A DNA stretch of 64,000 nt from a virus, in IMG/VR virus record IMGVR_UViG_3300042359_000621, one strand, 5' to 3'. The notes under the pieces are model-generated. The model made no database searches. It was not told the origin of the DNA and saw only the letters and a list, made by a program, of their open reading frames with translations. The translations under genes were made by a program, and so were the position numbers. Shown one piece after another: positions 328-27,276 of the stretch; position 1 is the stretch's first letter; each line of letters starts with the position of its first letter.

Positions 328-329
328 AA

Positions 330-809: not shown

Positions 810-812
810 TAA

Positions 813-1737: not shown

Positions 1738-1774
1738 TTAACTCACAAGGTTTCTATTTATAAAAGGTAAAATC

Positions 1775-3232: not shown

Positions 3233-3314
3233 CGTATGAAAAACCTCAATGCCAAAAATCCATCTCCTACAATTCTGGCAAGACCTGTATCAATGAGTCT
3301 AAAGCAAAAGGAAC

Positions 3315-5385: not shown

Positions 5386-5418
5386 GATAAAATATAGGCA
5401 CTATTTAAGGACAAAAGC

Positions 5419-5610
5419 ATGAATAACAAACCTCAAACAGATGAAGAAATCCTGGTCGATATGGATGAAATTGATAACCTTGAACTTGAATACGGGATCT
5501 CTGCTGCCCCATCTCGTAAACTCAAGGCGTTGAAAGGCAAGTTAAATACGGAAGACATAATTAAAGATAAAACTTCTGGGGTGTCTCAAAGAAAAATCAA
5601 TACAAAGTAA
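5419..5610 (+). CDS. small acidic protein (paralog of 9549..9722)
   Basis: A conserved duplicate copy follows the second GNAT domain. AAGGA lies upstream of the ATG. Confidence 0.5.
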   Translation: MNNKPQTDEEILVDMDEIDNLELEYGISAAPSRKLKALKGKLNTEDIIKDKTSGVSQRKINTK

Positions 5611-5639
5611 ACCAACAAACCTATTTGTGATGTTCTGAA

Positions 5640-7861: not shown

Positions 7862-7862
7862 C

Positions 7863-8138
7863 ATGGCTTATCGCGTTAAAATCAATGGTGTAGTGGCAAT
7901 TGTTGAGAATGGCGTTTGGTCATCCTCAACACCCCATTATGCCGAAATTCTAAATAACGTCTTGGCAATGGAGAAATTGGCAGCCATAGACCCTGATTCG
8001 CCTTTTTTCTGGCTTAATTCCCCTGCAACACCCGACCCCGATTGGTTGATTGCAACCGAGATAGCAAAAACCTTTGAGGGGACGGTAATGGATCAACCGA
8101 TTACTCCTCCGGCAACAGACGAAGACATTGTTTATTAA
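7863..8138 (+). CDS. hypothetical protein
   Basis: ATG lies 2 nt after the upstream stop. No motif recognised. Confidence 0.45.
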   Translation: MAYRVKINGVVAIVENGVWSSSTPHYAEILNNVLAMEKLAAIDPDSPFFWLNSPATPDPDWLIATEIAKTFEGTVMDQPITPPATDEDIVY

Positions 8139-8144
8139 CCTGCG

Positions 8145-9500
8145 ATGAAGTTCAATCCAAATGCTACGGTTTCCGAGGCTCAAATGAAGTTAGCGATCGC
8201 TCAAACGTTATCGCTCCCATTTGCCTATAATTCTCCCGTGATGGTGTTGGATTTTGATTTAGGGGATAGTAACGGCGACAAAATAACAGGGCGGTTTAAG
8301 GACGCTTTCCGACCCCGCGTGTTTAGTTTTGAGATAACCAGGAAGTCAGTTGTCTATAAACCCTTCGTGGCTCGAACTGATAGCACGGGTTTGAATGTTG
8401 AGGTATGGGAAGATTTCTCGTCGGGTTATTCCTACCGATCAGGTTATTCCTACCGTGTTGATGCAGGGGGAGCAAGAAGGGAGAAAGCCCGGTGCGTAAA
8501 GCCTACGTCCTACAATTGTGGGAGTGTTTGCATCAATATCAAGAAAAGTTGCAGAGCTAATGCTGACGATGACTTTTCGGAGGAACGGATTGATAAGTTG
8601 CTCAAGTTAAAAAAACTGTATTTAGATGAACTGTACAAAATACAGCATGAGGAGCAAAAAGAAAGAGAATCTTATCTTCTTAAAGAAAATAAGGAGGTTA
8701 CTCTTGCGCTCATGGGTGCAAGAGAAAGGCAAAGAGAGCCAGAGAAACAAAAAGAGCTAGAGAAACAAAGACAGCTAGAAAAACAAAAAGAGCTGGAGAA
8801 ACAAAAAGAACTAGAGAAACAAAAACAGCTAGAAAAACAGCTAGAAAAACAAAAACAGCAGCAATCCCCTGGGCAAAGAGTCGGAAAATTAATGCCTTTT
8901 ATTGCATCCGTGAAAGAGATAGAGAAAACGGCAGAAGAATGGATTGATAAATCTAGTAAGTACGTTGCTACTGCGGGGGAAGCATTGAAGCAGTCCCCGT
9001 ACGGTAAAATTATAAAGTATGGCAATAAGGAGGTGATTGAGCGAGATGTTCTGGAGAAAAAAAGAGATTTAGTTGATGACTCAAATGCTGTGGCGGCGGG
9101 TCTAGCTTGGGCAGTAGAACTAGAGCCAGGATTACAAGATGCGTTTTTTTTAAAGGATGAATCAGGGAAATCTCAGGGGTTTTTCCTTACAGGAAACGAT
9201 AAATCTAAAGAATCTATGTATATAGAATATTTAGGTACTAATCCATCGAATATAATAACTAATACAAAAGGAGTGGGGAAGCAAATTATGTACCACGCTA
9301 TTCAAGAGAGTATAAAAAGAGGGTTTAATGGGAAGATAAAGCTAGAGGCGTTAGCATCTGCGGAACCTTTTTATGAGTCAGTTGGGTTTAAGAAACGCAT
9401 TGAAAAAAGTGCTAAATATGGATATGAACTTGAGTATTTTCATCTGTCGGAAAAATCAGCTAAGGCATTTGTCAAGGAATATGAGAAAAAACTAAAATAG
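8145..9500 (+). CDS. modular protein, paralog 3 (N-domain + 4-Cys motif + EKQ coiled-coil repeat + GNAT domain)
   Basis: It has the shared N-domain and EKARCVKPTSYNCGSVCINIKKSC. An 18-bp tandem (ELEKQK)n repeat lies at about 8741-8860. The C-terminal GNAT is about 85-90 percent identical in DNA to 5008-5385. Confidence 0.7.
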   Translation: MKFNPNATVSEAQMKLAIAQTLSLPFAYNSPVMVLDFDLGDSNGDKITGRFKDAFRPRVFSFEITRKSVVYKPFVARTDSTGLNVEVWEDFSSGYSYRSGYSYRVDAGGARREKARCVKPTSYNCGSVCINIKKSCRANADDDFSEERIDKLLKLKKLYLDELYKIQHEEQKERESYLLKENKEVTLALMGARERQREPEKQKELEKQRQLEKQKELEKQKELEKQKQLEKQLEKQKQQQSPGQRVGKLMPFIASVKEIEKTAEEWIDKSSKYVATAGEALKQSPYGKIIKYGNKEVIERDVLEKKRDLVDDSNAVAAGLAWAVELEPGLQDAFFLKDESGKSQGFFLTGNDKSKESMYIEYLGTNPSNIITNTKGVGKQIMYHAIQESIKRGFNGKIKLEALASAEPFYESVGFKKRIEKSAKYGYELEYFHLSEKSAKAFVKEYEKKLK

Positions 9501-11514: not shown

Positions 11515-14500
11515 ATGTCAAGTTCAAGTCTTAGCGGAGTCAGTATCACGATCTCGGCAAGTAATCAAGTTTCTCCTGTCCTGAGAGCAATTCAAGGGGA
11601 GTTGCTTGGACTGCGCCAACCCCTTCAGGTGCTTGACTTGTTTCAGAGTTCCTTTGGGGGGATAACGTCATCTATTGTTCAAGCTACGACAACTATCGGC
11701 TTCTTTGGGCAGGGGATGTCAACGCTTCGAGGGTTGGTTTCTAACGGCCCGTTTAAATTGTTGATTGGGCAAACAGTCGAACTACATGGGCAGTTGCTAT
11801 CGGTCGCCTCAACGATGGCAGCAACTTCAAAAATCATTAGTAACGGGTTTGAGATTAAAGACCCTACACAAGCAATCCTGGCTCTCAACCAACCTATAAA
11901 CGATCAGATTAGACAGTTAAGGATTGATTCTATTGATCTAGTTGGGGTCACGTCTAAGCAGTTGATTCCCGTGTTTCAACAGGTGGCACAGGGTGCGACA
12001 CCGATTGGAGCAACCCTAAGCGATGCACGGAGTTTAACTATTGACTTTGCAGCAGCTTTGGGGACTTTACAGGTTCCGTTATTTCAAAGTAGGCAAGAAA
12101 TTCAATCAATTTTCCTAGGAACAATTGATATGAATTCTATCCTGGCTAAATCGTTGGGGATAACTAACACGATGGTTGCCAAGTGGAAGGCTCAGGGGAC
12201 TTTGGTGCAGGAATTAACCTCTCGATTGTCTGCATTTAGGGCTGGGAACAAATTAGCCGCCGAGAGTTTTTCTGGGGTAACATCAAACATTCAAGAGATG
12301 TTTGAATTGATAGGACAAAGATCGGGGGAAAAACTATTAGCACCTTTGACTCAATCCCTAAACGAAGTCTATAAGTTTTTACAAACGAACCTTGAGATGT
12401 TGGTGGGTGAATCGGGGAAGGTTACAGATCAGATCCTTCGCGCGGGTCTAGCCTTCCAATCTATTTTTAAAACGGTTCTTGGGGATGTGGTGACGGTCTT
12501 TAAGGATGTTCCATTATTCTTGTTTACCTCTCTAGCGAACGCATTGGAGGCACTGAATCAGGGACTGGGATTCACGATGACGGTATTGCGTCCTGCCCTT
12601 AACCTGTTCGCGGCATTATCAAGTGCGGTAGCTCCCCTCGCTTCTGGTTTCCTTGTGATTGCCCTTCAGGTAAAAGCCCTCACTGTTGGAGTAGGAATAC
12701 TTTCTAAGGCTTTTGGGATATTAGGCGGCATTCTGTTACCCGGTGTCGGGCAAATCTTCCCCCTCCTTGTTGCTAACGCAGGCGCTTTAGGCGCTGCTTT
12801 TACAGGGCTTGGGGGAGCAACTATCTTCAGTTCTGTAGGCATGGCTCAATTCTCTGCCAACCTTCAGCAAATACCCGGCGCAATGACGTTAATGGCTTCT
12901 GCTACGGCAGCGTTAGGGAATCTTCTCAGGACAGTTGGCTTGGCGGTTGTCGCATTTGGTGCGTTCAAAATAATTGATGAATTTATCCTCAAAAACAGGG
13001 GGTTAATGGAAGTCCTTGGGGGTGTATTTGGGGGGTTGGGTGAAGTTGTCAATATTTTAATCGGGTCTTGGCAGTCAGCCTTGATCACTTCGACTGTTGT
13101 TGTCGGGGGGTTAGCGATCGCATTCCGCGCTCAATTAATCCCTGCGGTTTTGTCGTTTATCTCAATTCAATTAGCTGGTGTTGTAACCAGTTCTGCATCT
13201 GCATTTGTGTTTCTTGCCGGAGTATTGACTTCTCTTGGATTTAGCAGTATGGCTATCACGGCCGGAACTGCTGCACTTCATTTACAAATGCTGTCTGCGT
13301 CTGCAAGTCTGGGAACATTGACTATGGGAGGGTTGGCTCTTGCTGTTAAAAGTGTAGCCTTATCTGTAGCTACGTTACTCGCTCCTTTAGCTGCTGTGGC
13401 TGCGGTAGTGGGAGGTATTGGACTTGTTCTTTATAGTCAATCCTTAAAGGATTCTACAGAAGCCACACAGGAGTTAGCTAATAGAACTGAAGAATATGGG
13501 GATTTAGCTATTGATTCGCTTGAGAAACTGTCTGTGGCTCAGAAAAAGCAACAGGAGTCAGAGAAATCAGGGATTAGATTGACCGACGAAGAATATAAAA
13601 ACAATCAAAAACTTCAAAATCAAGCCAAACTCAGGATCGGATTAATAGAGGATCAAATAACTGCATTAAAAGAGCAGGAAAAAACAGTTAAGGGTGATGC
13701 CAACAAGTCTAACATTCAATCTCAAATAGGTGAGCTAGAAAAACTAAAAACGGCATTAGCTCAAGCATCTTCTAATGTGGTTATTGCACCAAAAGATTTA
13801 ATGGTATTAGGGACGGCGTTAGAACAGTTAAAGAAAAAAGCAAATGAAGCTATGGACGCAATTCTAAAACCATCTGGAGATCAGGAGGTGTTTAAGAAAA
13901 AGGCATCTGAGGTTATTGAATTTAACATGGCTTTATTGGAAATGGGGCAAACAATTGATAAGGATGTTATTACTAAACTACGTCAGTTAGCTAACGATAC
14001 AAGGTTAGATCAAGAGGTTCAACGCAAGGCACAGGAAACAATTACTAAAGTCATTGAGCAGGAAAGCAAAAAGCGATCCGATACTATTGCAAAACAAAAA
14101 GCAGAGGTAGAATCTCAACAAAAAAACGGGGAGATAGGAGTAAGGAAATCGGAAAAGTTAATAACTGATTTAACTATCAAGGAATTAGAGGAACGGAAAT
14201 CAGCCCAACAAGAAATCCAGTCCGAGCAACGAGCTTTTGGAAACATTGAAGCAGCCCGAAAAGCCGGGGAAGAAATCAAGAAAATAGAATCAGATATTAC
14301 TAAAGCAATTGCAGAGGAACGGTCTAAACGGAACGAGGAACTGGTTAAAAACTTTCAGGAGCAACAGTCAATTATTGAGGGGTATCTCGCCCAAGGATTA
14401 ACCACAGAGAAAAACTACAATAACCAAAAATCACAGTTACAAATCGAGGGATTGGACGAACAAATTAGGCAGCAGCGAAACAAATTAGGAAAATTAGCAG

Positions 14501-16563
14501 GGGATGATAAAGAAGGTCGGGAGGCTATTAACGCCGAGATAGGGAAACTCCAAGTTCAACGGCAAAAAACAATTAAGGACGGTTATGATCAAGAGCTTTC
14601 TACCCTTGAAAAACAACTCCAGAAAACCGTTGATTTAGTCAAAGAGGCTGAATTAATTAGACAAAGTGAAGTTCAGAAGTCGTTTAATGAATTTGGAGGT
14701 AATCAGAATTTAATTAACGAGGAAAATGTAAAAAACAACCTTAAGACCCTTGAGGCTGAATACAGTAACACGGTTAAAAAATTAAAGGAAACAAAATCTC
14801 AACCAGCACTATCAGATCCCCGACTAGAGACTGACAGACAAACTAAAATCAGAAAGTTAAGACAAGAACAACTCCAACAATCTTTGGGGATGTTGAAAGT
14901 CGAGAAAGAAGCCTGGGATGCTCATACTCAAACCGTTTTAGGGAATATTGCCAAAGAAAACAACGCCCAATTATTAAGCATAGAAAAGCAGATTAATAGC
15001 GGTAACGTACTGAGGGAATTAGAGGGGGCTGCAAGTGCTACCGATAAAGTTCAGGAGTTGCAAGTTCTACTTAGTCGAGAAAAAGACATTAATAAGCAAG
15101 CCGAGTTAAGGTTGTCCCTAGAGAAAGCTATCAGGGAAGAACGGGAAGCCTGGGGAGCATTGGGGATTGCCGAAATTGAAGCAATTAACAATCTTGAGTT
15201 AATCGCCTTAAAAAATCTGCTAAACCAAGGGAAAATTCTCAAGGAAGAATACGATCTAAAAATAGCACAGCAAGCCATAGAAACATTGCAAAAACGAATT
15301 AGTTTAGAGACGGATGTTGGCAAGAAAATCAAGCTCCAATTACAGCTAGTTGAAGAACAAGGGCGGTTGATTGATGCAAACGTAAGGAGATACGAAGCAG
15401 GGTTAAACAAGGAAGCACAAGCCTACGAGAACACCATTAAACGCCAGAATAATGAACTAGACAATCAGAGTCGGAAATTCGATATTCTCAATAAAGCCCT
15501 TCAGATGCGTTCGGAATTACAGGACGCACAGAAGGGGGTGTTTGACGCGGCTAATAGCTTTTACTCAGGGGAATTAGATGCTTTAGTCCAAGGGGAACGC
15601 TCCGAACGGAAGAAAAAACAACTTGCAGAATTAATCTCGGCTATTAAATTAAAATCAGCTATGCAACAAGCTGAGTTTGATAGACAAAGTCTGATATCCC
15701 AACAATTAATGAAAACCATCGAGTTTGAACGGGAGAAAATAGCTGCTAGAAGGGCGCTGAATGATGCGAAAATTGAAAAAAGAAAAGCTGATAATGCTCT
15801 TAAAGTAGCAAAAAAAGATCCTAGAACAACTCCAGAACAATTAGAGGAGCTGCAAACAGCAGCAGATATAGCAGAAGAGAACGTTGGCTACCAAGAGCAA
15901 AATTTAGGTTTATTACGGAAACAAGGCATTATCCAGTCAAAAGTTTTCAAACTCCAGAGAGAAGCGTTAGAATTCCGCAGTCAAGGGGCTATTCGTTCGG
16001 CACAGGTAGACTTAGCGAACAACACCAGTAACAGATCATTGAGACGACAGCGTTTTGCTGATATTACATCCAGTGTGCTTGATAGTTTTGGAGTAGACAG
16101 TATAAATGATCTAACGGGTCGAGCCGCGGCGACGGGAGAACAAGCCCTCAGAGAAAGTGGATTAAGGGGGGGTAGAAGACTTCCAGGGGGATTATCAGCA
16201 GAAGAACAGATGCGAAGCCTTAGAGGGGATTCTGGGGAGTTTTCTGGTGCAACAGGTAGCGCACCTTCTGAAATCTACAAACTAACTGGCGGACTCGGTG
16301 GGGGGTCGGCATCATCTCCTCAATTAACAGATCCTCTCAAACTTCCCTCTGCTTTGTCTCCCGTCCTATCCCCCATCGTCTCCCCAGACTTCTCACGGGC
16401 ATTGCAGCAAGCTACAGGGAAAGGTCAAACGACAATTTCTCCAACAATAAATATCCCGATTACCGTAATCGGCGATCAAAAAGTGGGAGAATCAATTAAG
16501 AAACAGGTTGAACCGAGGTTAGAAAATGTTATTCAACAAATGGTTAATCTCTCCCGTAATTAG
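11515..16563 (+). CDS. tail length tape-measure protein
   Basis: 1682 aa. The N-terminal third is rich in Gly/Ala hydrophobic segments. It is followed by about 900 aa of heptad-like coiled coil (E/K/Q-rich). It is the largest gene in the late block. Confidence 0.75.
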   Translation: MSSSSLSGVSITISASNQVSPVLRAIQGELLGLRQPLQVLDLFQSSFGGITSSIVQATTTIGFFGQGMSTLRGLVSNGPFKLLIGQTVELHGQLLSVASTMAATSKIISNGFEIKDPTQAILALNQPINDQIRQLRIDSIDLVGVTSKQLIPVFQQVAQGATPIGATLSDARSLTIDFAAALGTLQVPLFQSRQEIQSIFLGTIDMNSILAKSLGITNTMVAKWKAQGTLVQELTSRLSAFRAGNKLAAESFSGVTSNIQEMFELIGQRSGEKLLAPLTQSLNEVYKFLQTNLEMLVGESGKVTDQILRAGLAFQSIFKTVLGDVVTVFKDVPLFLFTSLANALEALNQGLGFTMTVLRPALNLFAALSSAVAPLASGFLVIALQVKALTVGVGILSKAFGILGGILLPGVGQIFPLLVANAGALGAAFTGLGGATIFSSVGMAQFSANLQQIPGAMTLMASATAALGNLLRTVGLAVVAFGAFKIIDEFILKNRGLMEVLGGVFGGLGEVVNILIGSWQSALITSTVVVGGLAIAFRAQLIPAVLSFISIQLAGVVTSSASAFVFLAGVLTSLGFSSMAITAGTAALHLQMLSASASLGTLTMGGLALAVKSVALSVATLLAPLAAVAAVVGGIGLVLYSQSLKDSTEATQELANRTEEYGDLAIDSLEKLSVAQKKQQESEKSGIRLTDEEYKNNQKLQNQAKLRIGLIEDQITALKEQEKTVKGDANKSNIQSQIGELEKLKTALAQASSNVVIAPKDLMVLGTALEQLKKKANEAMDAILKPSGDQEVFKKKASEVIEFNMALLEMGQTIDKDVITKLRQLANDTRLDQEVQRKAQETITKVIEQESKKRSDTIAKQKAEVESQQKNGEIGVRKSEKLITDLTIKELEERKSAQQEIQSEQRAFGNIEAARKAGEEIKKIESDITKAIAEERSKRNEELVKNFQEQQSIIEGYLAQGLTTEKNYNNQKSQLQIEGLDEQIRQQRNKLGKLAGDDKEGREAINAEIGKLQVQRQKTIKDGYDQELSTLEKQLQKTVDLVKEAELIRQSEVQKSFNEFGGNQNLINEENVKNNLKTLEAEYSNTVKKLKETKSQPALSDPRLETDRQTKIRKLRQEQLQQSLGMLKVEKEAWDAHTQTVLGNIAKENNAQLLSIEKQINSGNVLRELEGAASATDKVQELQVLLSREKDINKQAELRLSLEKAIREEREAWGALGIAEIEAINNLELIALKNLLNQGKILKEEYDLKIAQQAIETLQKRISLETDVGKKIKLQLQLVEEQGRLIDANVRRYEAGLNKEAQAYENTIKRQNNELDNQSRKFDILNKALQMRSELQDAQKGVFDAANSFYSGELDALVQGERSERKKKQLAELISAIKLKSAMQQAEFDRQSLISQQLMKTIEFEREKIAARRALNDAKIEKRKADNALKVAKKDPRTTPEQLEELQTAADIAEENVGYQEQNLGLLRKQGIIQSKVFKLQREALEFRSQGAIRSAQVDLANNTSNRSLRRQRFADITSSVLDSFGVDSINDLTGRAAATGEQALRESGLRGGRRLPGGLSAEEQMRSLRGDSGEFSGATGSAPSEIYKLTGGLGGGSASSPQLTDPLKLPSALSPVLSPIVSPDFSRALQQATGKGQTTISPTINIPITVIGDQKVGESIKKQVEPRLENVIQQMVNLSRN

Positions 16564-16830: not shown

Positions 16831-17613
16831 TCACTTGACGCGATCGCCAATAGCTCGAATCAATTTAGTGGCGTACCATTTCAACTGAGGGATATTTTTA
16901 CCCCCGTTAGTAGAGTTTAAAATCAACTTACCCAACCCCTCACTACTGGATGTGAGTTGATATTGAATACGCCCCTTCGCGTCACGGGTCAACACTTGCA
17001 AGCCCAACTCACACAGCATTTTATTGAGGTCGCGGGGTGTCATTTTAACGCCACTCGCTTCAAACATCGAACAAACCTCTGTGACCGTTGACAGGGTTTC
17101 AGGGAGTTCGATACTGGATACAATTAACTTCTGAGCATCCAGATAAATCTCACGGTTTGTGGTGTCAATTTTGGAGGCGAGTGTAACCAGCCCCCAAGAC
17201 TCCACGACGGGAGATTCTAACCCGCATAATGAGAGGGCTTTTTTAGCGTATTCCAAAGCGTCAAACGATGACGGTGAGGTGATAGCTCTTTGATGGGTGT
17301 AACTGCCAGTTTCTCGGATGGAAGGTAAGACTTCCTCAAAAACCCAGTCCTGAAACTTTTCAGCAGCCGGGAGACTTGACCGCATGATTAATTGATAAAG
17401 TCCAGGCTCACTGATAAAATTCGGGCTTTTACCCGGTTTACCTAAATCTAACTGCTGGTTATATTTACCTGAAACGTTATCCTGCAATGCTTTTGATGGA
17501 TTTGCGTACCCCAAAGCCTTAGCAACTTGTGAAGCATTGAACCAAGGTTGACCGTCAATGACTATGACATCAAGGGAGTTTTGCTCGAAAACAAAAACTG
17601 ATATACTTTGCAT
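16831..17613 (-). CDS. Bro-N domain (BRO / antirepressor family) protein
   Basis: The N-terminus VIDGQPWFNASQVAKALGYANPSKALQDNV...FISEPGLYQLIMRS..AEKFQDWVFEEVLPSIRETG matches the Bro-N pattern. Confidence 0.75.
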   Translation of the reverse strand: MQSISVFVFEQNSLDVIVIDGQPWFNASQVAKALGYANPSKALQDNVSGKYNQQLDLGKPGKSPNFISEPGLYQLIMRSSLPAAEKFQDWVFEEVLPSIRETGSYTHQRAITSPSSFDALEYAKKALSLCGLESPVVESWGLVTLASKIDTTNREIYLDAQKLIVSSIELPETLSTVTEVCSMFEASGVKMTPRDLNKMLCELGLQVLTRDAKGRIQYQLTSSSEGLGKLILNSTNGGKNIPQLKWYATKLIRAIGDRVK

Positions 17614-17690
17614 TAGTTGACCTGTGTATTAGGTTGACTCATCCCCCGGACATTTACAGTGTTGCGGGGGTATTCCTTATTATATCGGAT
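17614..17690 (-). promoter_or_regulatory. conserved 5' leader with hairpin (copy 1; copy 2 at 32668-32740)
   Basis: About 75 nt directly upstream of the Bro-N start is near-identical in layout to the leader of the KilA-N gene. It contains the hairpin cccccgcaaca..ccggggg. Confidence 0.45.
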
Positions 17691-17739
17691 TTTAAAGCTG
17701 GTAATTGGAATTAAGCCCAACCCGAATCCAGTCACAAAA

Positions 17740-17766
17740 AGAGGGAGTCGAAACCCCCTCTTTTTT
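17740..17766. terminator. orphan intrinsic terminator-like hairpin
   Basis: agagggagtcgaaaccccctc followed by T6 on the + strand. No annotated + strand gene lies upstream of it. Confidence 0.5.
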
Positions 17767-17795
17767 GGTGATTACCTATTTTTAAAATTGCTAAC
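17767..17795 (+). repeat. degenerate sense copy of the CRISPR repeat 3' two-thirds
   Basis: ggtgattacctatttttaaaattgctaac compared with repeat 15 ggtgattacctgttttaaggattgaaac gives about 23 of 28 positions with one indel. Confidence 0.4.
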
Positions 17796-17932
17796 CATAT
17801 CTGGCTAGAGAATATTCCCTCTTCATCGCCTAATCGTTAATCCTTTCGGCTCCAAGGGCAGCTTTTGGCTTGCCGATCTAAACATCGGTGATTCCATTAT
17901 ATACAACTATAATTGGAAATGTCAACATATAC

Positions 17933-17948
17933 GTTTCAATTTCTTAAA
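17933..17948 (+). other. anti-repeat-like segment overlapping the RBS region of the Cas12-like gene
   Basis: gtttcaatttcttaaa is the reverse complement of the repeat tail tttaagaattgaaac (variant in repeats 10-12), except for one extra t. Confidence 0.35.
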
Positions 17949-17953
17949 TAGGT

Positions 17954-19627
17954 ATGTCTAATTTTAGCGATAATGTGCGAACAAAGGAGTTTAAGCTCAT
18001 TCTATCCTCGGAACAAGAGCGAACCCTAGAAGATTGGATGCTAGTCTGTAAGTGGGTTTGGAATCGTTCACTGGGATTGATAGAGGAATTTAACGAGTGG
18101 AACCCCTACGATAGAATATCAAAGTCTAACGTCCCCGCTACTCCCCTGCAACGATATGATCGCAAGCTCAAGCAATGGGTACGAATTGAGATCCCAGATT
18201 GGAAGATGGGGATTGAACGAGTTGAGAAGAAAAGGGGATTCATCCATCCCGTTGCTATTGATGAGAATAGTCCGGTTATTGACTCACTAGATTCTAAAAA
18301 ATCAGTGCTATACGGATTTCTAAAAATGTTTGGACATCAACACCACAAAGATCGGATCGTGACTTATTTAATTAGAGGTGAGGAACGAAAAGTCAATTTC
18401 ACCGACTGCCCTGCAAAATTTATCCAAGGGGTAGCGCATGAACTCTCGAAGGCTTGGGAGGGATTTCTGGCGGGTCGCCATAGTCGTCCCCGATTCAAAA
18501 CAGCCAAAGATAAGGTGATGACTTTGATCCACTATAACGCCAGGGATCTAGGGGTTAAGGATGGTAAAATTAATATTCCTAAGTTGGGTTATATTGAAGT
18601 AATTGGGCTTGATAAGCGGTGGTATGGTTGCGATTTTAACCCGATGAAAATTTGCAAAAAAGCGTCGGGGTGGTATATACAATTAACTGCGTCCGTCCCT
18701 GTCAAACAAGCCAAGAAGACAGGGTTATGTTGTGGAATTGACCCCGGACATCAGTTTGTTATGGCATTGGATAATGGTCACACTATTGAGGCTGCACAAC
18801 CATTGAAACGTGGGTTAAAACGTTTAAGAAAAATGCAGCAACAATTATCTCGCAAGTATCGAATGAACGGGGGGAAGACTAAGAACTGGGAGAAACTTAA
18901 CAATAAGATTGCTAAACTTCACGAAAAGATCGCCCGTCACCGTCGATCTTTTAACCATTGGCATTCGACTAATTTAATTAATTGGTTTGATGTGATTTTT
19001 GTAGAAGATTATAAACCCGCCAATGTTTACCGAAAAGCTAAAGCTAAGGCAAAACTAGATACAGAGGGGGCTCCAATGGTAGCTGCAAATGGTACGGCTA
19101 TCTATGAGAAGAACAATCAGAAACGCAAGCGGGGAAGTAATAGAACAGGAAATGATGTGGCTATCGGTCAGGCTATTGATCTATTAGAAACCAAGGGAAA
19201 GGAACACGGAAAGTTAGTAATTCGGGTCGATAATTGGGGGACTACTTTATGTTGTGCAAAGTGTGGACACCAAGAGAAGAAAAAACTATCACAACGAACT
19301 CACAAATGCTCTAATTGTGGCTATACTGTGGCTCGTGATGTTAACTCAGGACAGAATATTAAACTGAAAGGTTTGGCTCAAATGGCAATCAATCAAGGTG
19401 TGGAGTTATCCGATAATTTCTGGTATAAATTCTTGATTGATAAAAATTCGGCAACCCCTAGCGGTTCTAAGAAGGCGACCAAGAAAAAGCCTAAAAAGTC
19501 AGACACCGTAATCATTCCAGATGATTTGTTTAAAAATGGGGTTCACGAATTTTTGATCGGTGAAACTGCCAAAACTCGTGCTATAATAAATGAAATGAGC
19601 TTAGGTAATTTCGATAGAAACGCCTGA
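17954..19627 (+). CDS. compact TnpB-like type V CRISPR effector candidate (Cas12-like, 557 aa)
   Basis: TnpB-type layout with an N-terminus KEFKLILSSEQERTLEDWMLVCKWVWNRSL, then RPRFKTAKD and IPKLGYIEV. RuvC-I is GIDPG (D263, 18740-18742). RuvC-II is IFVEDY (E351, 19004-19006). Zn ribbon is CAKCG..CSNCG. RuvC-III is ARDVNSGQNI (D462, 19337-19339). Its stop lies 19 nt before the first CRISPR repeat. Confidence 0.8.
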   Translation: MSNFSDNVRTKEFKLILSSEQERTLEDWMLVCKWVWNRSLGLIEEFNEWNPYDRISKSNVPATPLQRYDRKLKQWVRIEIPDWKMGIERVEKKRGFIHPVAIDENSPVIDSLDSKKSVLYGFLKMFGHQHHKDRIVTYLIRGEERKVNFTDCPAKFIQGVAHELSKAWEGFLAGRHSRPRFKTAKDKVMTLIHYNARDLGVKDGKINIPKLGYIEVIGLDKRWYGCDFNPMKICKKASGWYIQLTASVPVKQAKKTGLCCGIDPGHQFVMALDNGHTIEAAQPLKRGLKRLRKMQQQLSRKYRMNGGKTKNWEKLNNKIAKLHEKIARHRRSFNHWHSTNLINWFDVIFVEDYKPANVYRKAKAKAKLDTEGAPMVAANGTAIYEKNNQKRKRGSNRTGNDVAIGQAIDLLETKGKEHGKLVIRVDNWGTTLCCAKCGHQEKKKLSQRTHKCSNCGYTVARDVNSGQNIKLKGLAQMAINQGVELSDNFWYKFLIDKNSATPSGSKKATKKKPKKSDTVIIPDDLFKNGVHEFLIGETAKTRAIINEMSLGNFDRNA

Positions 19628-19646
19628 AACACTTGCGGATTAAGCT

Positions 19647-20817
19647 CTCGCAATAGGTGATTATCTGGTTTAAGGATTGAAACCTCCCTCCTGGGGTGTG
19701 TAGGATTGGTATTAATCCGACTCGCAATAGGTGATTATCTGGTTTAAGGATTGAAACTTATTGAATCCTGTGCGATCGCCACACTTTCGGGCTTTGATCT
19801 CGCAATAGGTGATTATCTGGTTTAAGGATTGAAACAGAAGATAATTTGAGTCCCCCCTTTACTTTTGAATTGATCTCGCAATAGGTGATTATCTGGTTTA
19901 AGGATTGAAACACAACGGCTCCCATATTGAGTTTCAAATACTTTTCCCTCGCAATAGGTGATTATCTGGTTTAAGGATTGAAACGCGACTGTTCAACACC
20001 GGAATTAAATATAATTCCCGCTCGCAATAGGTGATTATCTGGTTTAAGGATTGAAACTTTCCCATAACTTATCCGGCGGTTGCTGTTTAGAGAACTCGCA
20101 ATAGGTGATTATCTGGTTTAAGGATTGAAACTCAAAACCCATACACAGAGGGAGTGCCGGGTAAGTCGCTCGCAATAGGTGATTGCCTGTTTTAAGGATT
20201 GAAACAACGGGTGGGAATCCATTTTTATTAATGATTTAATCAAGCTCGCAATAGGTGATTATCTGGTTTAAGGATTGAAACCAGAAAATCAGATTGATTG
20301 TATCATAATTGACCCGTTAGATTTCTCGCAATAGGTGATTGCCTGTTTTAAGAATTGAAACATCCATGTTGAATAGTTGGATTGCTTGACAACAATACTC
20401 GCAATAGGTGATTGCCTGTTTTAAGAATTGAAACTTTAACCCTTCTACAGCATCACTGGATGATATTAAGCCTCGCAATAGGTGATTGCCTGTTTTAAGA
20501 ATTGAAACTATATCAGCGATATGGCCGGGCTTTATGGGTATTGCTTGGAGCACTCGCAATAGGTGATTGCCTGTTTTAAGGATTGAAACATATCGAGATT
20601 AATTCATTTGAAAATACTCCCATTGCTGCTCGCAATAGGTGATTGCCTGTTTTAAGGATTGAAACGATTGAATTTGAGCTACCATGTCATTAAGTCCTTT
20701 AACTATTTCTCGCAATAGGTGATTACCTGTTTTAAGGATTGAAACGATTGGAGTCGGTTGGGAAGCCTTGCAAACGTTACCTCGCAATAGGTGATTGCCT
20801 GTTTTAAGGATTGAAAC
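19647..20817 (+). CRISPR. CRISPR array, 16 x 37-bp repeats and 15 spacers
   Basis: The repeat is CTCGCAATAGGTGATTATCTGGTTTAAGGATTGAAAC in repeats 1-7 and 9. The variant ..GATTGCCTGTTTTAAG(G/A)ATTGAAAC occurs in repeats 8 and 10-16. Spacer lengths are 37, 41, 39, 36, 36, 37, 37, 39, 43, 36, 37, 44, 39, 43 and 35 nt, and all spacers are unique. Confidence 0.95.
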
Positions 20818-20825
20818 AGGAGATA

Positions 20826-20852
20826 GGGGTATTTTTCAACCCCGTTGTTTTT
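20826..20852 (+). terminator. weak intrinsic terminator after the last repeat
   Basis: A 5-bp stem ggggt/acccc with an 8-nt loop is followed by gttgttttta. This supports + strand transcription of the array. Confidence 0.35.
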
Positions 20853-21273
20853 ACCGACCAAGGGACGCTCTAGCATCACTCAGTATCTTGTTCATCTGGG
20901 CTTCCGTAATATCAAAGTCGGGTGTGTTGGGTCTGATGCGCCCGTTGCTGAATGCTTTCCCTGCGTAGCTGCGAATTACGGGGATTGTAGCGGGTCGGGG
21001 TCGGGTTTGGGTTGTTACAGGTCGCAAGGTTTTGTATGCGTTCATCCACTTATTAGTCTTGACCGTTGCCCAATTCCCGTTAAGGACTACACCCTTCTCG
21101 GTACGGATGAAATGGACTGTTTGGCCGTTTTCCATTAATTCAGTCCAACCATAGCGGATTTCAATCGTCCCATCTGGGTGAACCATTTTGATTGTGTCGA
21201 TTGTGATTCCGTCAAACGTTGAGGTGTAGCTTGAGATGATTTCGGTTGTGATTGTGGCGATTTGAGCTACCAT
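20851..21273 (-). CDS. hypothetical protein (140 aa)
   Basis: Clean ORF. Its start region is echoed by CRISPR spacers 14 and 15. No motif recognised. Confidence 0.55.
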   Translation of the reverse strand: MVAQIATITTEIISSYTSTFDGITIDTIKMVHPDGTIEIRYGWTELMENGQTVHFIRTEKGVVLNGNWATVKTNKWMNAYKTLRPVTTQTRPRPATIPVIRSYAGKAFSNGRIRPNTPDFDITEAQMNKILSDARASLGR

Positions 21274-21343
21274 GATATTTAGATCCTTAGTTGGGTTGGG
21301 TGGAGTCGGTTGGGTGTCCCTGGTAAGTTGCTCGACCGACTTT

Positions 21344-21480
21344 GTTTTACTTCTATGTTTTACATCTTAACCGATTTGTTTTACTTTGTCTAGTGGTTTT
21401 ACTTTAGTATTACTTATAGGTTTATACTGTTTTACAGAATTACAATCAATTTTACTTATATGTCTTACTATTCGTTTTAC
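21344..21480. repeat. iteron-like cluster of GTTTTAC heptamers
   Basis: Exact GTTTTAC occurs at 21344, 21357, 21378, 21396, 21429 and 21474. Variants occur at 21407, 21449 and 21462. The cluster sits in a divergent intergenic region. Confidence 0.6.
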
Positions 21481-21522
21481 ATCGTGCTACACTTGAAGGT
21501 AAGACACAAAAGGAGTAAACCG

Positions 21523-21894
21523 ATGGCGGCTAACAAATTAATTAACTTTCGATGCCCTGATGACTTACTTGCTGCGATTGAAGTCTACGGCAGGGAACAC
21601 TACCCTAACGGTCGGGGTAATACTGATTTTGACCAAAGCAAAGCACTCAGAGATATTCTAATTTCTGGTCTGGAGAGTTTAACTAACGGGGAAGTGAAAC
21701 TTGAGAGGGAACCCGTAAAATACAAGTCAGACAATAGCTCCTATGTGGAGTTGTTGGATAGGATTGCCAAACTAGAGGCGCAGCAACCCACAGCTATTGA
21801 TCCAACTATTATGGCGCGGCTAGATGCGATGGAGGCTGCAATCGCATTTGAGAAGGTGATGGGGATTTTGAAACAAATTGAAACCCCTAGTTGA
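21523..21894 (+). CDS. possible ribbon-helix-helix DNA-binding protein
   Basis: ATG is preceded by AAAGGAG. The N-terminus LINFRCPDDLLAAIEVYGRE fits an RHH strand-helix. The track start at 21460 lies inside the iteron cluster, so it was rejected. Confidence 0.5.
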   Translation: MAANKLINFRCPDDLLAAIEVYGREHYPNGRGNTDFDQSKALRDILISGLESLTNGEVKLEREPVKYKSDNSSYVELLDRIAKLEAQQPTAIDPTIMARLDAMEAAIAFEKVMGILKQIETPS

Positions 21895-21927
21895 TTTTTA
21901 ATCGGAATCAAGCAATTATCACTAATT

Positions 21928-21960
21928 AAAAAGGGTAGAGATTGAACCTCTACCCTTTTT
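21928..21960. terminator. bidirectional intrinsic terminator
   Basis: aaaaagggtagag-attgaac-ctctacccttttt lies between convergent genes. Confidence 0.6.
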
Positions 21961-24153: not shown

Positions 24154-25227
24154 ATGAATACCAAACCCATTTATCGTGTTCCTCTAATGAAAGAGATAGA
24201 AGAAATCCCCTGGAACGGGTTTAATGTTGTTTCTACCTTTAGTGGTACTGGTGGCTCATGTCTTGGCTATCGGATGGCTGGTTATCGGGTGTTGTGGGCT
24301 AATGAATTTATTCCTGCGGCTCAGGATTCTTATAAAGCAAATCACCCGAATTCCATCCTTGATAGGAGAGATATTCGGTTGGTACAGCCAGAAGACATTT
24401 TAAGAGCAACTGGCTTAGGTGTTGGCGAAATTGACATATTCGATGGTTCGCCCCCGTGTGCAGCTTTTTCTAAAGCAGGTAAACGTGATAAAGGATGGGG
24501 TGTCGTAAAGAAATATTCAGATACCACGCAACGGGTTGACGATTTGTTTTTTGAATACACCAGACTAATCCAAGGAACAAAGCCTAAAGTATTTGTTGCT
24601 GAAAATGTAGCAGGTTTAGTTACAGGTGTTGCTAAAGGTTATTTTTTAGAGATACTGAGAACTTTAAAAGCCTGTGGCTACAAAGTTAAGTGTAAAGTTT
24701 TAGATGCTCAGTGGTTAGGTGTTCCACAGGCCAGGCAACGGACTATTTTTATAGGGATTAGAGACGATATTAACTTGGATATCGTCTACCCTATACCATG
24801 CAAAAAACAATACACTGTTAGGGATGCAATATCAAATCTAGGGATTGACAATAGTTTGTTTTATAAACTTCCTAAAGGTAAAATGTTAGATGTTTATATG
24901 AACACAAGAGATGACGAGAAAGGTAGATTTGAAGATGCACATTACAGATTGTACGGCAAGGAGTCTTATTTTAATTTTGCGAGAGCTTGTTGGGATTTAC
25001 CGTCTAGGACTATTCTACAAAGTAGCCAGGGTATATGTCACCCAGAGATACCCAGAACATTTACTATTTCAGAATTAAAGCGTATCTGCGCTTTCCCAGA
25101 TGACTTTATATTATTAGGTTCATTTGCTAAACAATGGGAACGACTGGGGCGTGCTGTTCCCCCTGTTATGATGTCACATATAGCCAAAACAATTCAATTA
25201 GAAATACTAGAAAAATGTGTGGATTAG
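24154..25227 (+). CDS. DNA cytosine-C5 methyltransferase-fold enzyme with an atypical motif X (GRAVPP)
   Basis: Motif I is FSGTGGSCLGY, motif IV is GSPPCAAFS, motif VI is AENVAGL, and motif VIII is QARQRTIFIG. Motif X is LGRAVPPVM, with Arg where the canonical enzyme has Asn. Confidence 0.85.
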   Translation: MNTKPIYRVPLMKEIEEIPWNGFNVVSTFSGTGGSCLGYRMAGYRVLWANEFIPAAQDSYKANHPNSILDRRDIRLVQPEDILRATGLGVGEIDIFDGSPPCAAFSKAGKRDKGWGVVKKYSDTTQRVDDLFFEYTRLIQGTKPKVFVAENVAGLVTGVAKGYFLEILRTLKACGYKVKCKVLDAQWLGVPQARQRTIFIGIRDDINLDIVYPIPCKKQYTVRDAISNLGIDNSLFYKLPKGKMLDVYMNTRDDEKGRFEDAHYRLYGKESYFNFARACWDLPSRTILQSSQGICHPEIPRTFTISELKRICAFPDDFILLGSFAKQWERLGRAVPPVMMSHIAKTIQLEILEKCVD

Positions 25228-26570
25228 CGGGTACATATAAATCCAGTGTAGATGTAGAGTCTATGCTTCTTAAAATAATACATAGGGGGCGAGATGACCA
25301 AGGCATTCACAAGCATGGCGATACTGTTCATGGTCACGTTAGGCTGTCTTTACTTGATTTAAGTTCGGCATCTAAACAGCCTTTTCTCTTGAATAATTCC
25401 ACTCTTTCATTTAATGGTGAGATATGGAATTATAGAGATATAAAAAAGAAGTTACAAGACGATGGTTGTAGATTTAACACAACAGGCGACACCGAAGTAT
25501 TGAGTCAATTTTTAGATATTTATGGTGTTTCGCAGTTAAATCAACTAGAGGGAATGTTTGCTTTTGCGTGGAGTAAGGAGCAGGAACATTGGCTTGTGAG
25601 AGACCGTTTTGGTGAAATACCTTTGTATCTGGCAAAAACGAATAAAGGGTATATCTGGGCATCTGAAAGAAAAGCATTTCCTAGTGGTGTTATACCTGTT
25701 TCCGTTCCTCCGGGCTATGCTTTTAATCTAGTAAAAGGCGAGTGGTTTCAATGGTATAAACTACCAGGAACAACACCACAGCAAAATATATTAGATTGCT
25801 TGAGTAGGGGTGTAGAACAAAGATTAAATGCCGATGCTCCGGTCTGCTGTCTTATATCGGGCGGATTAGATAGCGTCTTAGTTCTGCAAATAGCAAAGTC
25901 TATAAATAAAAACATCGTAGCTTTCACGGCAAAAATGCGTAACGATTCAAATGATTTACTAGCAGCCAGAAGGGTATGCAGTGAGTACGAAATTCAATTA
26001 ATAGAAGTGCCAGTATCTATTGATTTGGATTCCTTAACTAACGCAGCTAAAGTAATAGAAATTAACAGCAAAGCTCAAATAGAGATAGCTTCACTGTGCC
26101 TACCACTGGCACAAAGGATAAGAGCAGAAGGTTTTAAGTCTTGCTTATCTGGTGAAGCTGCCGATGAGCTTTTTGGCGGTTATGGTAACTTCTGTATTCA
26201 GGCATCCAAAAGTACGAATACAGAAGTTATATCTCTTAGAAAAAGTCAATTAGCAAAAATGTCAAGGGGTAATTTTGTTAGGTGCAATAAAGCATTTATG
26301 TATGGTGGCGTTGAGTGTAGATTGCCATTTATGGATGTTAATTTAGTTGAATATGCCATAAACCTAAACCTCTCGCAATCACCAGCAAATAAGAAACTAC
26401 TGAAATCCGCCGCAGCTAAACTACTGCCTAAGTGGGTGATATCCAGAGTTAAGGATACCTTTCAAGGGGGTAGTGGAGTCTCTACCTGGACAGAGGAAAA
26501 TATAGCATCTCCAATAAAATTTTACAACAATGAACTAAAGAAAACTTTTGGATACTTACCCAAGGACTAA
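25215..26570 (+). CDS. asparagine synthetase B-like glutamine amidotransferase / ATP-PPase
   Basis: It starts MCGLAG (Ntn Cys2 of class II GATase). It has the PP-loop CCLISGGLDS. It overlaps the MTase stop by 13 nt. Confidence 0.8.
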   Translation: MCGLAGTYKSSVDVESMLLKIIHRGRDDQGIHKHGDTVHGHVRLSLLDLSSASKQPFLLNNSTLSFNGEIWNYRDIKKKLQDDGCRFNTTGDTEVLSQFLDIYGVSQLNQLEGMFAFAWSKEQEHWLVRDRFGEIPLYLAKTNKGYIWASERKAFPSGVIPVSVPPGYAFNLVKGEWFQWYKLPGTTPQQNILDCLSRGVEQRLNADAPVCCLISGGLDSVLVLQIAKSINKNIVAFTAKMRNDSNDLLAARRVCSEYEIQLIEVPVSIDLDSLTNAAKVIEINSKAQIEIASLCLPLAQRIRAEGFKSCLSGEAADELFGGYGNFCIQASKSTNTEVISLRKSQLAKMSRGNFVRCNKAFMYGGVECRLPFMDVNLVEYAINLNLSQSPANKKLLKSAAAKLLPKWVISRVKDTFQGGSGVSTWTEENIASPIKFYNNELKKTFGYLPKD

Positions 26571-26571
26571 T

Positions 26572-27276
26572 ATGAATAATTATCACGTTCCATCTAAAGA
26601 CAAATGGGAGTTTGACGAATCGGTAACAGATATTTTTGATGATATGTTAGCCCGTTCGATTCCCCAATACGAGGTAATGAGAAAAGCTGTTTCAAGTATT
26701 GCTTGTGAGTTTATGCAGTCTTCTGGTTGTGTAGTCGATATAGGCTGTTCAAGAGGTGAGCAAATAGCTCGTTTAATTCAATCCTATGGCGCGGGTTGTC
26801 ACTATCACGGAATAGAAATTAGTGAGCCGATGATTGGTGCAGCTAAAGACAAGTTCAAAAACCATCATTGTGTCAAATTACATGAATTGGATTTGAGAAA
26901 AGATTGGTTAACCATTGAAAACATATCTGTCACTTTGTCTGTTTTAACCTTGCAATTTATTCCGATTGAATACAGGTTAGGACTACTTAAAAAAATCTAT
27001 GATTCAACTCGAAAAGGCGGGTGTTTTATCTTGGTTGAAAAAGTTATTGGTGGGTCTGCTGATATTGACTCACTATTAACAAATCAATACTACAATTTAA
27101 AACACCAGAATGGTTACTCTGTCTATGAGATAGAAAGAAAGCGTTTAAGTCTTGAGGGTGTTTTAGTTCCTGTAACAGCTAATTGGAATGAAGAAATGCT
27201 AAAACTATCTGGTTTCACTGAAGTTGATTGTTTTTGGCGATGGATGAATTTTGTTGGATGGGTTGCTATCAAATAA
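26572..27276 (+). CDS. cmoA: CmoA-like carboxy-S-adenosylmethionine synthase homolog
   Basis: KWEFDESVTDIFDDMLARSIPQY, VVDIGCSRG, LTLQFIP, GGCFILVEK, NGYSVYEIERKRLSLEGVL and NFVGWVAIK are colinear with my recollection of E. coli CmoA. This is the first ATG, and a TTG alternative exists at 26548. Confidence 0.75.
   Translation: MNNYHVPSKDKWEFDESVTDIFDDMLARSIPQYEVMRKAVSSIACEFMQSSGCVVDIGCSRGEQIARLIQSYGAGCHYHGIEISEPMIGAAKDKFKNHHCVKLHELDLRKDWLTIENISVTLSVLTLQFIPIEYRLGLLKKIYDSTRKGGCFILVEKVIGGSADIDSLLTNQYYNLKHQNGYSVYEIERKRLSLEGVLVPVTANWNEEMLKLSGFTEVDCFWRWMNFVGWVAIK

Follow-up and report, generated by a model that had tools for sequence, protein, structure and literature searches.

The viral record IMGVR_UViG_3300042359_000621, whose whole 64,000-nucleotide (nt) stretch analysed here is called the window, carries downstream of its tape-measure gene a cassette that most probably represents a three-part, phage-borne type V CRISPR-Cas system belonging to the C2c8/V-U2 lineage. 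Composed of a TnpB-sized effector gene, a repeat array and a gene for a candidate trans-activating CRISPR RNA (tracrRNA), it would act as a DNA nuclease guided by two RNAs and dependent on a protospacer adjacent motif (PAM), with adaptation supplied in trans. Much of this anatomy had been recognised in an earlier note on the same DNA, whose coordinates and motifs hold: the TnpB-like open reading frame (ORF) of 557 amino acids (aa) with D263, E351, D462 and a zinc ribbon, the 16 repeats of 37 bp, the 19-nt gap that separates them from the stop codon, the terminal hairpin followed by a T-tract, and the location between tape-measure and DNA-modification genes are all found as described. Its view of a phage-borne type V locus with a TnpB-sized effector of nuclease-competent appearance is also supported. 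Two elements were absent from that note, namely an RNA gene on the strand opposite to the effector (about 17735-17925) and a probable array promoter that lies within the ORF, near its 3' end.

The position of the effector within the type V and TnpB families was examined by profile, motif and structure comparison. Counting from the start codon, the triad codons lie at 18740-18742 (D263), 19004-19006 (E351) and 19337-19339 (D462). A family alignment of 23 members shows no variation at D263, at D462 or at three zinc-ribbon cysteines; the fourth ribbon position, C455, is a cysteine in 22 members, and E351 is kept in 19. With a full triad and a CxxC..CxxC ribbon, the protein thus looks competent for nuclease activity. 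Pfam recognises OrfB_IS605 and Cas12f1-like_TNB and, weakly, HTH_OrfB_IS605. The best NCBIfam model is V_cas_c2c8 (NF038192), ahead of guided_TnpB (175 bits) and of IS200_TnpB (143.5 bits for a cutoff of 425 bits), and each of the ten relatives tested also has its best NCBIfam match there, with 504 bits (L048), 484 (L036), 451 (gp061 of cyanophage CL131), 377 (L067), 360 (P0015, named C2c8 by NCBI), 332 (P0013, P0014 and L078), 319 (P0005) and 280 (P0011). Since these relatives span 280 to 504 bits and the window protein, at 296, falls within that range, we regard it as a divergent branch of one continuous family. Its AlphaFold2 (AF2) model (predicted local distance difference test 79, predicted template modelling score 0.67; residues 498-557 form a disordered tail) has as best Foldseek neighbours ISFba1 TnpB, Cas12p, ISDra2 TnpB, LaTranC and AsCas12f. 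Furthermore, a search of the PDB with the family profile places Cas12p at the top (206.6 bits, E 8e-60), with ISDra2 TnpB at 157.6 bits.

A separate observation concerns a phage-associated subclade (P0007, P0008, P0010 and P0011, for instance L013 4630-6408) whose proteins are 42-44% identical to that of the window. There, the RuvC-II glutamate is replaced by a glycine (FLGD, FVGD or FLGE) and arrays and tracrRNA are retained, which would reflect either a rearranged active site or a loss of cleavage.

The array lies on the effector strand, and the opposite strand holds no copy of the repeat. Its gene-proximal repeats are identical to one another and variants (GCCTGT, ACCTGT, ..AAGAATTG..) occur at the distal end. 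Conservation across the clade covers the 75 nt that precede repeat 1, among them the TG-extended -10 box within the ORF. The close apposition of gene and array is not restricted to the window: elsewhere in the family the end of the ORF and repeat 1 share 10-30 nt, and homologs with 28-44% identity nearly always have an array on the same strand, its start lying -30 to +255 nt from the stop codon. This count covers homolog loci with enough downstream sequence; the most TnpB-like relatives make up most of the exceptions, together with L046 and L055. The homolog repeats measure 36-37 nt and differ in sequence, with ends ...TTGAAAC or ...TTGAAAG in the larger clade to which the window belongs. As same-strand, stop-adjacent arrays persist down to about 28% protein identity, the comparison of loci assigns the array to the effector and marks the tight junction as a family trait and not a peculiarity of this phage. 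The 16-nt segment ACTTGCGGATTAAGCT that follows the possible degenerate repeat 0 was considered as a homing or regulatory guide, and this idea was rejected as no convincing second site was found in the window.

Upstream of the effector, a segment complementary to the repeat belongs to what appears to be a separate RNA gene read from the minus strand. A repeat-complementarity scan found in six diverged loci a segment that matches the locus's own repeat, 200-290 nt upstream of the effector start and abutting a terminator hairpin, and this layout recurs in further loci, where a hairpin and U-tract likewise lie 3' of the anti-repeat. In the window, the minus-strand promoter is directed at this segment and at the minus-strand terminator beyond it, and a TGTCAA box is present in L009, L011, L012, L013 and L014 at the place corresponding to the window promoter. 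Four of the six differences between the window repeat and its copy are transitions, and all four are, by eye, compatible with G.U pairing in the minus-strand sense. No Rfam family matches this RNA.

This RNA was then compared across lineages. An alignment of 14 minus-strand candidates (A3), trimmed to the core and with its structure set by hand, contains four helices with compensatory changes, in which 82.6% of the cells are paired (63.5% in shuffled alignments). MAFFT and RNAalifold applied to full-length candidates had recovered two helices only, the variable hairpins being misaligned, and trimming to the core solved this. The covariation of A3 reaches 0.511, compared with 0.194 after shuffling; none of 500 shuffles scored as high, and the value is far lower when the pairing partners are slid. 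A wider, model-based alignment behaves in the same manner (0.489 versus 0.170, 0 of 500). The derived covariance model, R1, gives a single strong match per locus in the clade of the window (43-93 bits), on the strand opposite to the effector and just upstream of it, including at loci outside the seed alignment and in a remnant of the cassette in Planktothrix phage PaV-LD; in the window the match covers 17770-17864 on the minus strand (74.3 bits, E 6e-21). G.U pairs outnumber A.C mismatches by 31 to 6, which indicates that the minus strand is the transcribed one. A plus-strand reading was indeed rejected on the basis of this asymmetry, of the minus-strand promoter and terminator, and of the direction of pairing with the repeat. 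The folding z-scores of both strands are similar, so that single-sequence folding does not discriminate between them.

The link between this RNA and the array is borne out by two pairing sites. In 11 of 12 lineages the best pairing partner of the anti-repeat is the repeat of the same locus, with a mean energy of -21.1 kcal/mol versus -8.9, and none of 20000 permutations was as good. Moreover, a check of the loop in the 5' flank, prompted by the Cas12p structure, revealed that the loop and the 3' end of the repeat co-vary across lineages as AAAC/GUUU, AAAG/CUUU, GAAG/CUUC and GCAC/GUG; in the window the loop GUUU occupies positions 7-10 of the predicted RNA, counted from a start at 17889. Taken together, these data argue that the phage very probably encodes an unannotated tracrRNA on the strand opposite to the effector. 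The description of the locus as a single-gene effector with its array therefore has to be amended, since a conserved tracrRNA-like gene belongs to the cassette.

Two further observations concern the region upstream of effectors. The segment GTTTCAATTTCTTAAATAGGTA, which runs from the 5' untranslated region of the effector into its ATG, is complementary to the 3' half of the repeat, and counterparts matching the repeat of their own locus are found upstream of the genes in L013, L014, L064 and, weakly, L012; through such a segment crRNA (CRISPR RNA) or pre-crRNA might feed back on effector translation. The CL131-type clade (L002, L036 and L040, with repeats ending ...GGCAAG or ...TTGCAAG) gives no R1 match and displays another conserved element, AAACCTAGTCGCG...CACCACTAGGAGTAGGTC, located on the plus strand at about -95 to -10 from the effector start and with obvious internal complementarity, which may be a guide-RNA scaffold or a leader structure.

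Array contents point to ongoing and polarised spacer gain. Among 20 arrays with effectors of 94% identity or more, 88 spacer groups occur, the distal ones shared and the gene-proximal ones unique, as illustrated by the spacer orders 59-60-61-62-63-58 and 64-65-60-61-62-63-58. The repeat variant nearest to the gene is also the one that spread. Distal sharing, gene-proximal differences, the spread of the gene-nearest repeat and the conserved 75-nt leader together argue that spacers are added beside the 3' end of the effector gene. Regarding the PAM, in two cases spacers of separate window-clade arrays overlap in staggered register and place GTT and GTC, respectively, in the 5' flank of the inner spacer. 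In a sister clade, spacer L037_s7, from a phage contig of about 93 kb, matches non-array sequence of two related phage contigs, with 2 mismatches over 34 nt at L042 7277-7310 and 1 over 30 nt at L039 6143-6172 (0-2 mismatches over 30-34 nt overall), and with a 5' GTT; we read this match as direct sequence evidence of phage-against-phage targeting within the family. All three of the recovered 5' flanks, two from the window clade, one from the sister clade and none from a spacer of the window itself, fit GTN, which makes a GTN PAM probable.

Spacer targets were otherwise scarce. The 87 distinct spacers of the window clade, compared with 50,697 phage records, returned only the spacer of PaV-LD's own array and one match at chance level (E 0.7), and among 325 spacers of all arrays compared with the window, PaV-LD and every fetched locus, the sole credible protospacer, unmasked arrays aside, is that of L037_s7. 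Three spacer cores, scanned as exact words against IMG/VR, returned array-bearing contigs only, or nothing. The window itself is absent from the phage records, and the scans with its spacers S1 and S3 did not bring back its own contig. The search for spacer targets proposed in the earlier note thus yielded a target in the sister clade and none for the window clade among the phage records, loci and IMG/VR sequences searched. Four other pairings, window_s8 with window 46567-46589, L014_s13 with L067, L037_s2 with L049 and L036_s15 with L018, were judged to be partial or chance matches and set aside. Spacer 2 of the window (19758-19798), for which no match was found, contains GCGATCGC, which we take to be the HIP1 (highly iterated palindrome) motif abundant in cyanobacterial genomes and thus a hint at a cyanobacterial or cyanophage source of the spacer.

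The coordinates of the cassette and of its parts are collected in Table 1.

Table 1. Parts of the cassette in the window, with coordinates, strand and basis of each assignment
Feature	Coordinates	Strand	Basis or remark
Complete cassette, from tracrRNA gene through divergent promoter region and effector gene to array and terminator	17707..20853	both	
Candidate tracrRNA, ~155 nt	17735..17889	-	5' end inferred from -10 box, 3' end from terminator
tracrRNA intrinsic terminator, predicted stem 17758-17742 then CUUUUUG	17735..17758	-	terminator scan
Candidate anti-repeat 5'-GCAAUUUUAAAAAUAGGUAAUCACC-3' (25 nt)	17767..17791	-	predicted to pair with repeat nt ~10-34 (R:AR-2); duplex -22.5 kcal/mol
5' hairpin CCGAU-GUUUAG-AUCGG	17873..17888	-	loop GUUU (17883-17880) predicted to pair with repeat 3' AAAC (R:AR-1 pseudoknot)
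Predicted tracrRNA promoter TTGACA-18 nt-TATAAT	17896..17925	-	sole 12/12 sigma-70 match in 17550-21000
Second anti-repeat-like segment GTTTCAATTTCTTAAATAGGTA, effector 5' untranslated region into ATG	17933..17954	+	local alignment to repeat reverse complement
Effector gene, 557 aa, divergent C2c8/type V-U2 (Cas12f3-group) RuvC nuclease	17954..19627	+	profile, motif and structure matches
Probable array promoter/leader inside ORF 3' end, GTGAAA-16 nt-TG-n-TATAAT	19560..19587	+	10/12 consensus, extended -10
Possible degenerate repeat 0, whose end ...CCTGAAAC holds the stop codon, then conserved 16-nt ACTTGCGGATTAAGCT	19594..19646	+	sequence inspection
Sixteen-repeat CRISPR array (37 bp, CTCGCAATAGGTGATTATCTGGTTTAAGGATTGAAAC) with 15 intervening spacers, each 35-44 nt long	19647..20817	+	
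Intrinsic terminator after array, hairpin GGGGTATTTTTCAACCCC (20826-20843) then GTTGTTTTTA	20826..20853	+	terminator scan

In the mechanism that we favour, the array would be transcribed from the promoter in the 3' end of the effector ORF and the tracrRNA, of about 155 nt, divergently from the consensus promoter upstream of the effector. The tracrRNA would pair with the repeat twice, through its 3' anti-repeat with nt ~10-34 and through its GUUU loop with the terminal AAAC, the latter pairing forming a pseudoknot of the kind typical of TnpB omega-RNA and Cas12 guides. The duplex between repeat and tracrRNA would presumably be trimmed by host RNases, and the complex of effector, tracrRNA and crRNA would then read a 5'-GTN PAM and cut double-stranded DNA matching the spacer. 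New spacers would enter at the gene-proximal end and, because the phage has no adaptation machinery of its own, that machinery would act in trans. The likely use would be conflict with other mobile elements of the same host.

Several points weigh against this mechanism. The score of the window protein with the C2c8 model (296.4 bits, E 4e-88) lies below the model cutoff of 350. Taken as a single sequence, it matches Cas12p (9jfs_A) weakly in phmmer (35.7 bits, E 3.5e-8), and Cas12p needs thioredoxin, whose binding residues could not be identified in the window protein by inspection of sequence and alignment. As for the RNA, its ends are predictions, helix H4 of the model is missing from the window group, in which H3 has a shifted register, and the upstream repeat-matching segment could partly reflect descent from a repeat instead of selection for pairing; descent alone is insufficient, since it leaves the scaffold helices, the co-variation of the pseudoknot and the strand bias unexplained. 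Finally, three GTN cases are a small sample and the searches of phages, loci and IMG/VR returned no protospacer for any spacer of the window clade, so that the PAM and the targets of the window protein itself are predictions.

How many RNAs the effector would use is the point on which a two-part arrangement differs, the effector then processing and using crRNAs alone, as do Cas12a, Cas12j and Cas12m. No tracrRNA is reported for V-U2 in the CL131 paper or in a review table, and the repeats of some relatives (L009, L012 and L014) can form a hairpin of their own. The window repeat, however, self-folds weakly (-2.8 kcal/mol), at least 12 lineages show co-variation between the repeat and a conserved structured RNA that has an anti-repeat and a pseudoknot loop, and Cas12p, the closest characterised relative, needs a tracrRNA, all of which makes a crRNA-only effector unlikely. 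Slightly less likely still is a protein that binds DNA without cutting it or fulfils a regulatory or housekeeping role such as RNA-guided repression or homing. While the CL131 paper, citing earlier V-U work, raises a regulatory role, the second anti-repeat-like element overlaps the effector start codon and one sister subclade lacks the RuvC-II glutamate, the window protein retains its triad and zinc ribbon and Cas12p cleaves DNA; moreover, fast diversification at the leader end of the array suits defence or conflict better than a fixed regulatory target, and a sister-clade spacer targets related phages beside GTT.

The array might also have been borrowed from a host type I-D or III system and be serviced by host Cas6 and effectors (compare Nostoc phage N-1), the TnpB-like gene being an insertion sequence (IS) relic. 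This would be in line with the absence of adaptation genes from the phage, for which host machinery must act at some step. The repeat itself, 37 nt ending ATTGAAAC (an 8-nt 5' handle would be AUUGAAAC), and the spacers of 35-44 nt also speak in its favour. Repeats of 37 nt with such ends and with variable spacers resemble cyanobacterial type I/III arrays. On the other hand, a relaxed pattern of the repeat, AGGTGATNNNCTGNTTTAANNATTGAAAC, had no match in 185,579 species-representative genomes, the linkage, orientation and spacing of gene and array hold down to about 28-30% protein identity while the repeats change, the last four nt of the repeat co-vary with the tracrRNA loop beside the effector, and no transposase or TnpA domain was seen in Pfam scans of the window-specific ORFs, the flanking genes included. 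We thus consider a borrowed array highly improbable. The related idea that the cassette is itself an IS200/IS605 transposon, which the earlier note had named as the finding that would overturn its reading if TnpBs with transposon ends enclosed the protein, was examined and rejected: no transposase or TnpA was found in the scanned ORFs (no search aimed at left and right transposon ends was made), IS200_TnpB is below its cutoff, the array linkage is consistent and the array holds 15 different spacers with turnover. A left junction shared among relatives is insufficient alone for such a reading, and the two positions of the cassette described below leave room for some mobility or recombination.

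The window is collinear with PaV-LD (record 50358 to its end, then 1-8631), mostly with about 85-99% nucleotide identity in conserved blocks, and on this basis it is identified as a PaV-LD-like Planktothrix cyanophage, with a toxic bloom-forming cyanobacterium as host group. The locus is flanked by the tape-measure gene (11515-16563) and by a block of C5-methylase, amidotransferase and methyltransferase genes (24154-27276). Its left junction at 17707 is identical in all relatives compared, including PaV-LD (L001) and the IMG/VR contigs L005, L007 and L008; in the window the cassette precedes an ORF140(-)/ORF094R-like gene pair and in PaV-LD and these three contigs it follows that pair, and the flank beyond the last repeat (window 20818-21930) varies from contig to contig. 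The constant left junction, the two positions and the variable flank indicate a recombination-prone accessory region after the tape-measure gene and suggest that the cassette is mobile or that recombination is frequent there. The complete cassette is present in at least 20 contigs from IMG/VR and metagenomes, whose effectors are 94-99% identical. The reference PaV-LD genome, for its part, retains a decayed remnant (HQ683709 68769-69177, that is L001 6001-6409) in which the upstream region is followed by ~70 nt from the start of the effector ORF, joined to two repeats with a single spacer, and which is annotated as 'hypothetical protein' or not at all; the tracrRNA gene of this remnant is intact (R1 71.9 bits, L001 6064-6158, minus strand).

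The absence of adaptation genes, as proposed in the earlier note, agrees with what was found: Cas1, Cas2, Cas4 and Cas6 were not detected by Pfam scans of the 30 window ORFs without PaV-LD homolog (ORFs below 80 aa were not all scanned), and all other ORFs have PaV-LD homologs, with no cas annotation among those genes. The domains recognised in those 30 ORFs are Bro-N, C5 methylase, Asn-synthase-like amidotransferase, methyltransferase, ATPase, rhomboid and DUF5895. As to the immediate neighbours of the cassette, the upstream gene encodes a Bro-N protein and the downstream one is an ORF of 140 aa without Pfam match.

Other regions of the window also depart from PaV-LD. At 24154-27276 (plus strand) lie adjacent genes for a C5 cytosine methylase, an Asn-synthase/glutamine-amidotransferase protein with a weak QueC-like match and an S-adenosylmethionine-dependent methyltransferase; these three genes are missing from PaV-LD or weakly similar to PaV-LD genes and may constitute a DNA-modification island beside the CRISPR cassette. 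The intervals 41960-49639 (about 8 kb) and 52762-54780 are filled mostly with minus-strand ORFs without PaV-LD homolog, with a few small ORFs that do match, and encode among others a 630-aa protein without Pfam match, a rhomboid-domain protein and a DUF5895 protein. A tandem-repeat scan further detected an 18/36/54-nt repeat rich in AAA and GAG codons at 8723-8857, within the ORF 8145-9500, which resembles a PaV-LD gene at its N-terminus alone (91 aa).

Within the family, the RNA scaffold is found in more than one place. In L048, the best C2c8 match, a homologous RNA with all model helices intact lies on the effector strand, in the last ~200 nt of the ORF before repeat 1, and in L078, which is TnpB-like and arrayless, the core motifs occupy the corresponding place in the 3' end of the ORF; this location is that of the omega-RNA of TnpB. 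L048 also has a second, weaker R1 match in the middle of the ORF (3550-3638, plus strand, 24 bits, most pairs standard). Three states of the scaffold are thus observed in one family, in-ORF without array (L078), in-ORF with array (L048) and, in the window and most relatives, as a tracrRNA gene of its own. From this coexistence, the family appears to hold in-ORF scaffolds and split tracrRNAs side by side, as would be expected if an omega-RNA had given rise to a tracrRNA, although this is drawn from an unrooted set of loci and not from a dated phylogeny. A broader and more speculative scenario, which we put forward tentatively and consider possible but doubtful as a whole, is that V-U2 represents a natural record of this split, the scaffold having been excised, inverted and endowed with its own promoter and terminator, and that PaV-LD-like phages keep an active, fast-adapting nuclease without a Cas1-Cas2 of their own, their arrays being extended by hijacked host adaptation acting on a non-cognate repeat or by another route and being used against competing phages and mobile elements of Planktothrix blooms.

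For V-U2/C2c8, the literature searched contained neither a guide-RNA architecture nor a PAM or an activity. The present comparison supplies what a reconstitution would require: a candidate tracrRNA and its predicted ends, the two sites at which it would pair with the repeat, GTN as the probable PAM, and a nuclease of 557 aa whose active site is intact. In the PaV-LD phage group the cassette is common and its arrays turn over, the reference phage keeping only the decayed remnant, and this sharpens the question of how phage arrays without Cas1-Cas2 gain spacers.

Among known systems, Cas12k (V-K, of the cyanobacterial CRISPR-associated transposons) shares with the window a cyanobacterial setting and the use of a tracrRNA, which is predicted for the window; its PAM, GTN, is the one that is probable here. 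Cas12k repeats end ...GGTTGAAAG, and the protein lacks RuvC activity and acts together with Tn7-like transposition genes. The effector of the window, in contrast, has a full triad, and no Tn7-like genes were present in the ORFs scanned. Membership in Cas12f1 (V-F1/V-U3, Cas14a) was considered and rejected because only the C-terminal zinc-ribbon/RuvC part aligns (E 1e-9 or weaker for the single sequence) and Foldseek ranks it below TnpB and Cas12p. The TnpBs of IS200/IS605 elements (ISDra2, ISFba1) have in common with the window protein the WED/REC/RuvC/zinc-ribbon fold and, as predicted for the window, a pseudoknotted scaffold followed by the guide; the window effector is about 150 aa longer than ISDra2 TnpB, and the window differs by its multi-spacer array with turnover and by a separate scaffold gene on the opposite strand. 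As summarised in PMC13565253, which cites Jin et al. (Cell 2025), 'functional RNA splitting' leads from omega-RNA to tracrRNA and crRNA with TranC intermediates. The three scaffold states of the present family match this concept and LaTranC is a structural neighbour of the window protein, with a sequence similarity confined to the C-terminal RuvC/zinc-ribbon region.

The C2c8/V-U2 family was catalogued in 2017. A V-U2 locus was published in 2018 in the Aphanizomenon cyanophage vB_AphaS-CL131, in a paper that describes V-U2 as enriched in cyanobacteria and present in cyanophage too, reports no tracrRNA and raises a possible regulatory role; V-U2, V-U4 and Cas14c were subsequently brought together as Cas12f3 (V-F, 2020 classification). 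No functional study of V-U2 was found in the literature, and the table of a 2024 review lists none and no tracrRNA. The window shares with V-U2 a TnpB-sized RuvC/zinc-ribbon effector, an array directly downstream on the same strand and the lack of other cas genes, and C2c8 loci above the NCBI cutoff (L009/P0015, L067 and L048) carry an RNA scaffold matching that of the window. It differs in that its protein is below the cutoff and 32% identical to CL131 gp061, in that the CL131-type repeat (...GGCAAG) is unrelated to its own, and in the tracrRNA, reported as absent for V-U2 and predicted in the window clade. With a best family already catalogued, a V-U2 locus known from a cyanophage and a characterised Cas12p, the proposal of a new compact type V subtype made in the earlier note does not stand, the window protein being a diverged representative of a family that is known, in a setting already reported for it.

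The closest biochemically characterised relative is Cas12p ('Cas12 hacker', V-P; PDB 9jfs and 9jg3), a phage-encoded, TnpB-close family of 500-700 aa of which 11 of the 12 published proteins are more than 70% identical to each other. It uses a tracrRNA and a crRNA with a 37-nt repeat, recognises a GTN PAM, cleaves double-stranded DNA, is activated by host thioredoxin, has a disordered C-terminal tail and forms an AAAC:UUUG pseudoknot between crRNA -1..-4 and tracrRNA 7-10 (bioRxiv 10.1101/2025.01.20.633832); its activity was measured in E. coli, and its thioredoxin-binding (TB) domain depends on the essential C127. The window repeat is also 37 nt long and ends in AAAC, and the GUUU of the predicted RNA falls at the same positions 7-10. 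Likewise, the insertion after RuvC-II (GYxxNGxxxKxGxN) is common to both proteins, and the AF2 model has pairs of beta-strands in the REC insertion (E66-69, E74-77, E90-92 and E95-97) comparable to the description of the TB domain, but residues 50-115 of the window protein, which cover this insertion, contain no cysteine and the W44/Y45/W47/L51 cluster of Cas12p is not recognisable. Cas12p is also larger, at about 613 aa as deduced from alignment and residue numbering, versus 557 aa. Given 35.7 bits for the single sequence versus 206.6 bits for the family profile, Cas12p is best seen as a sister family, and the window protein not as a member of it. Relative to these systems, what is added here is a very probable tracrRNA, a probable PAM, a polarised gain of spacers, the PaV-LD remnant and a view of omega-RNA splitting from within a single family.

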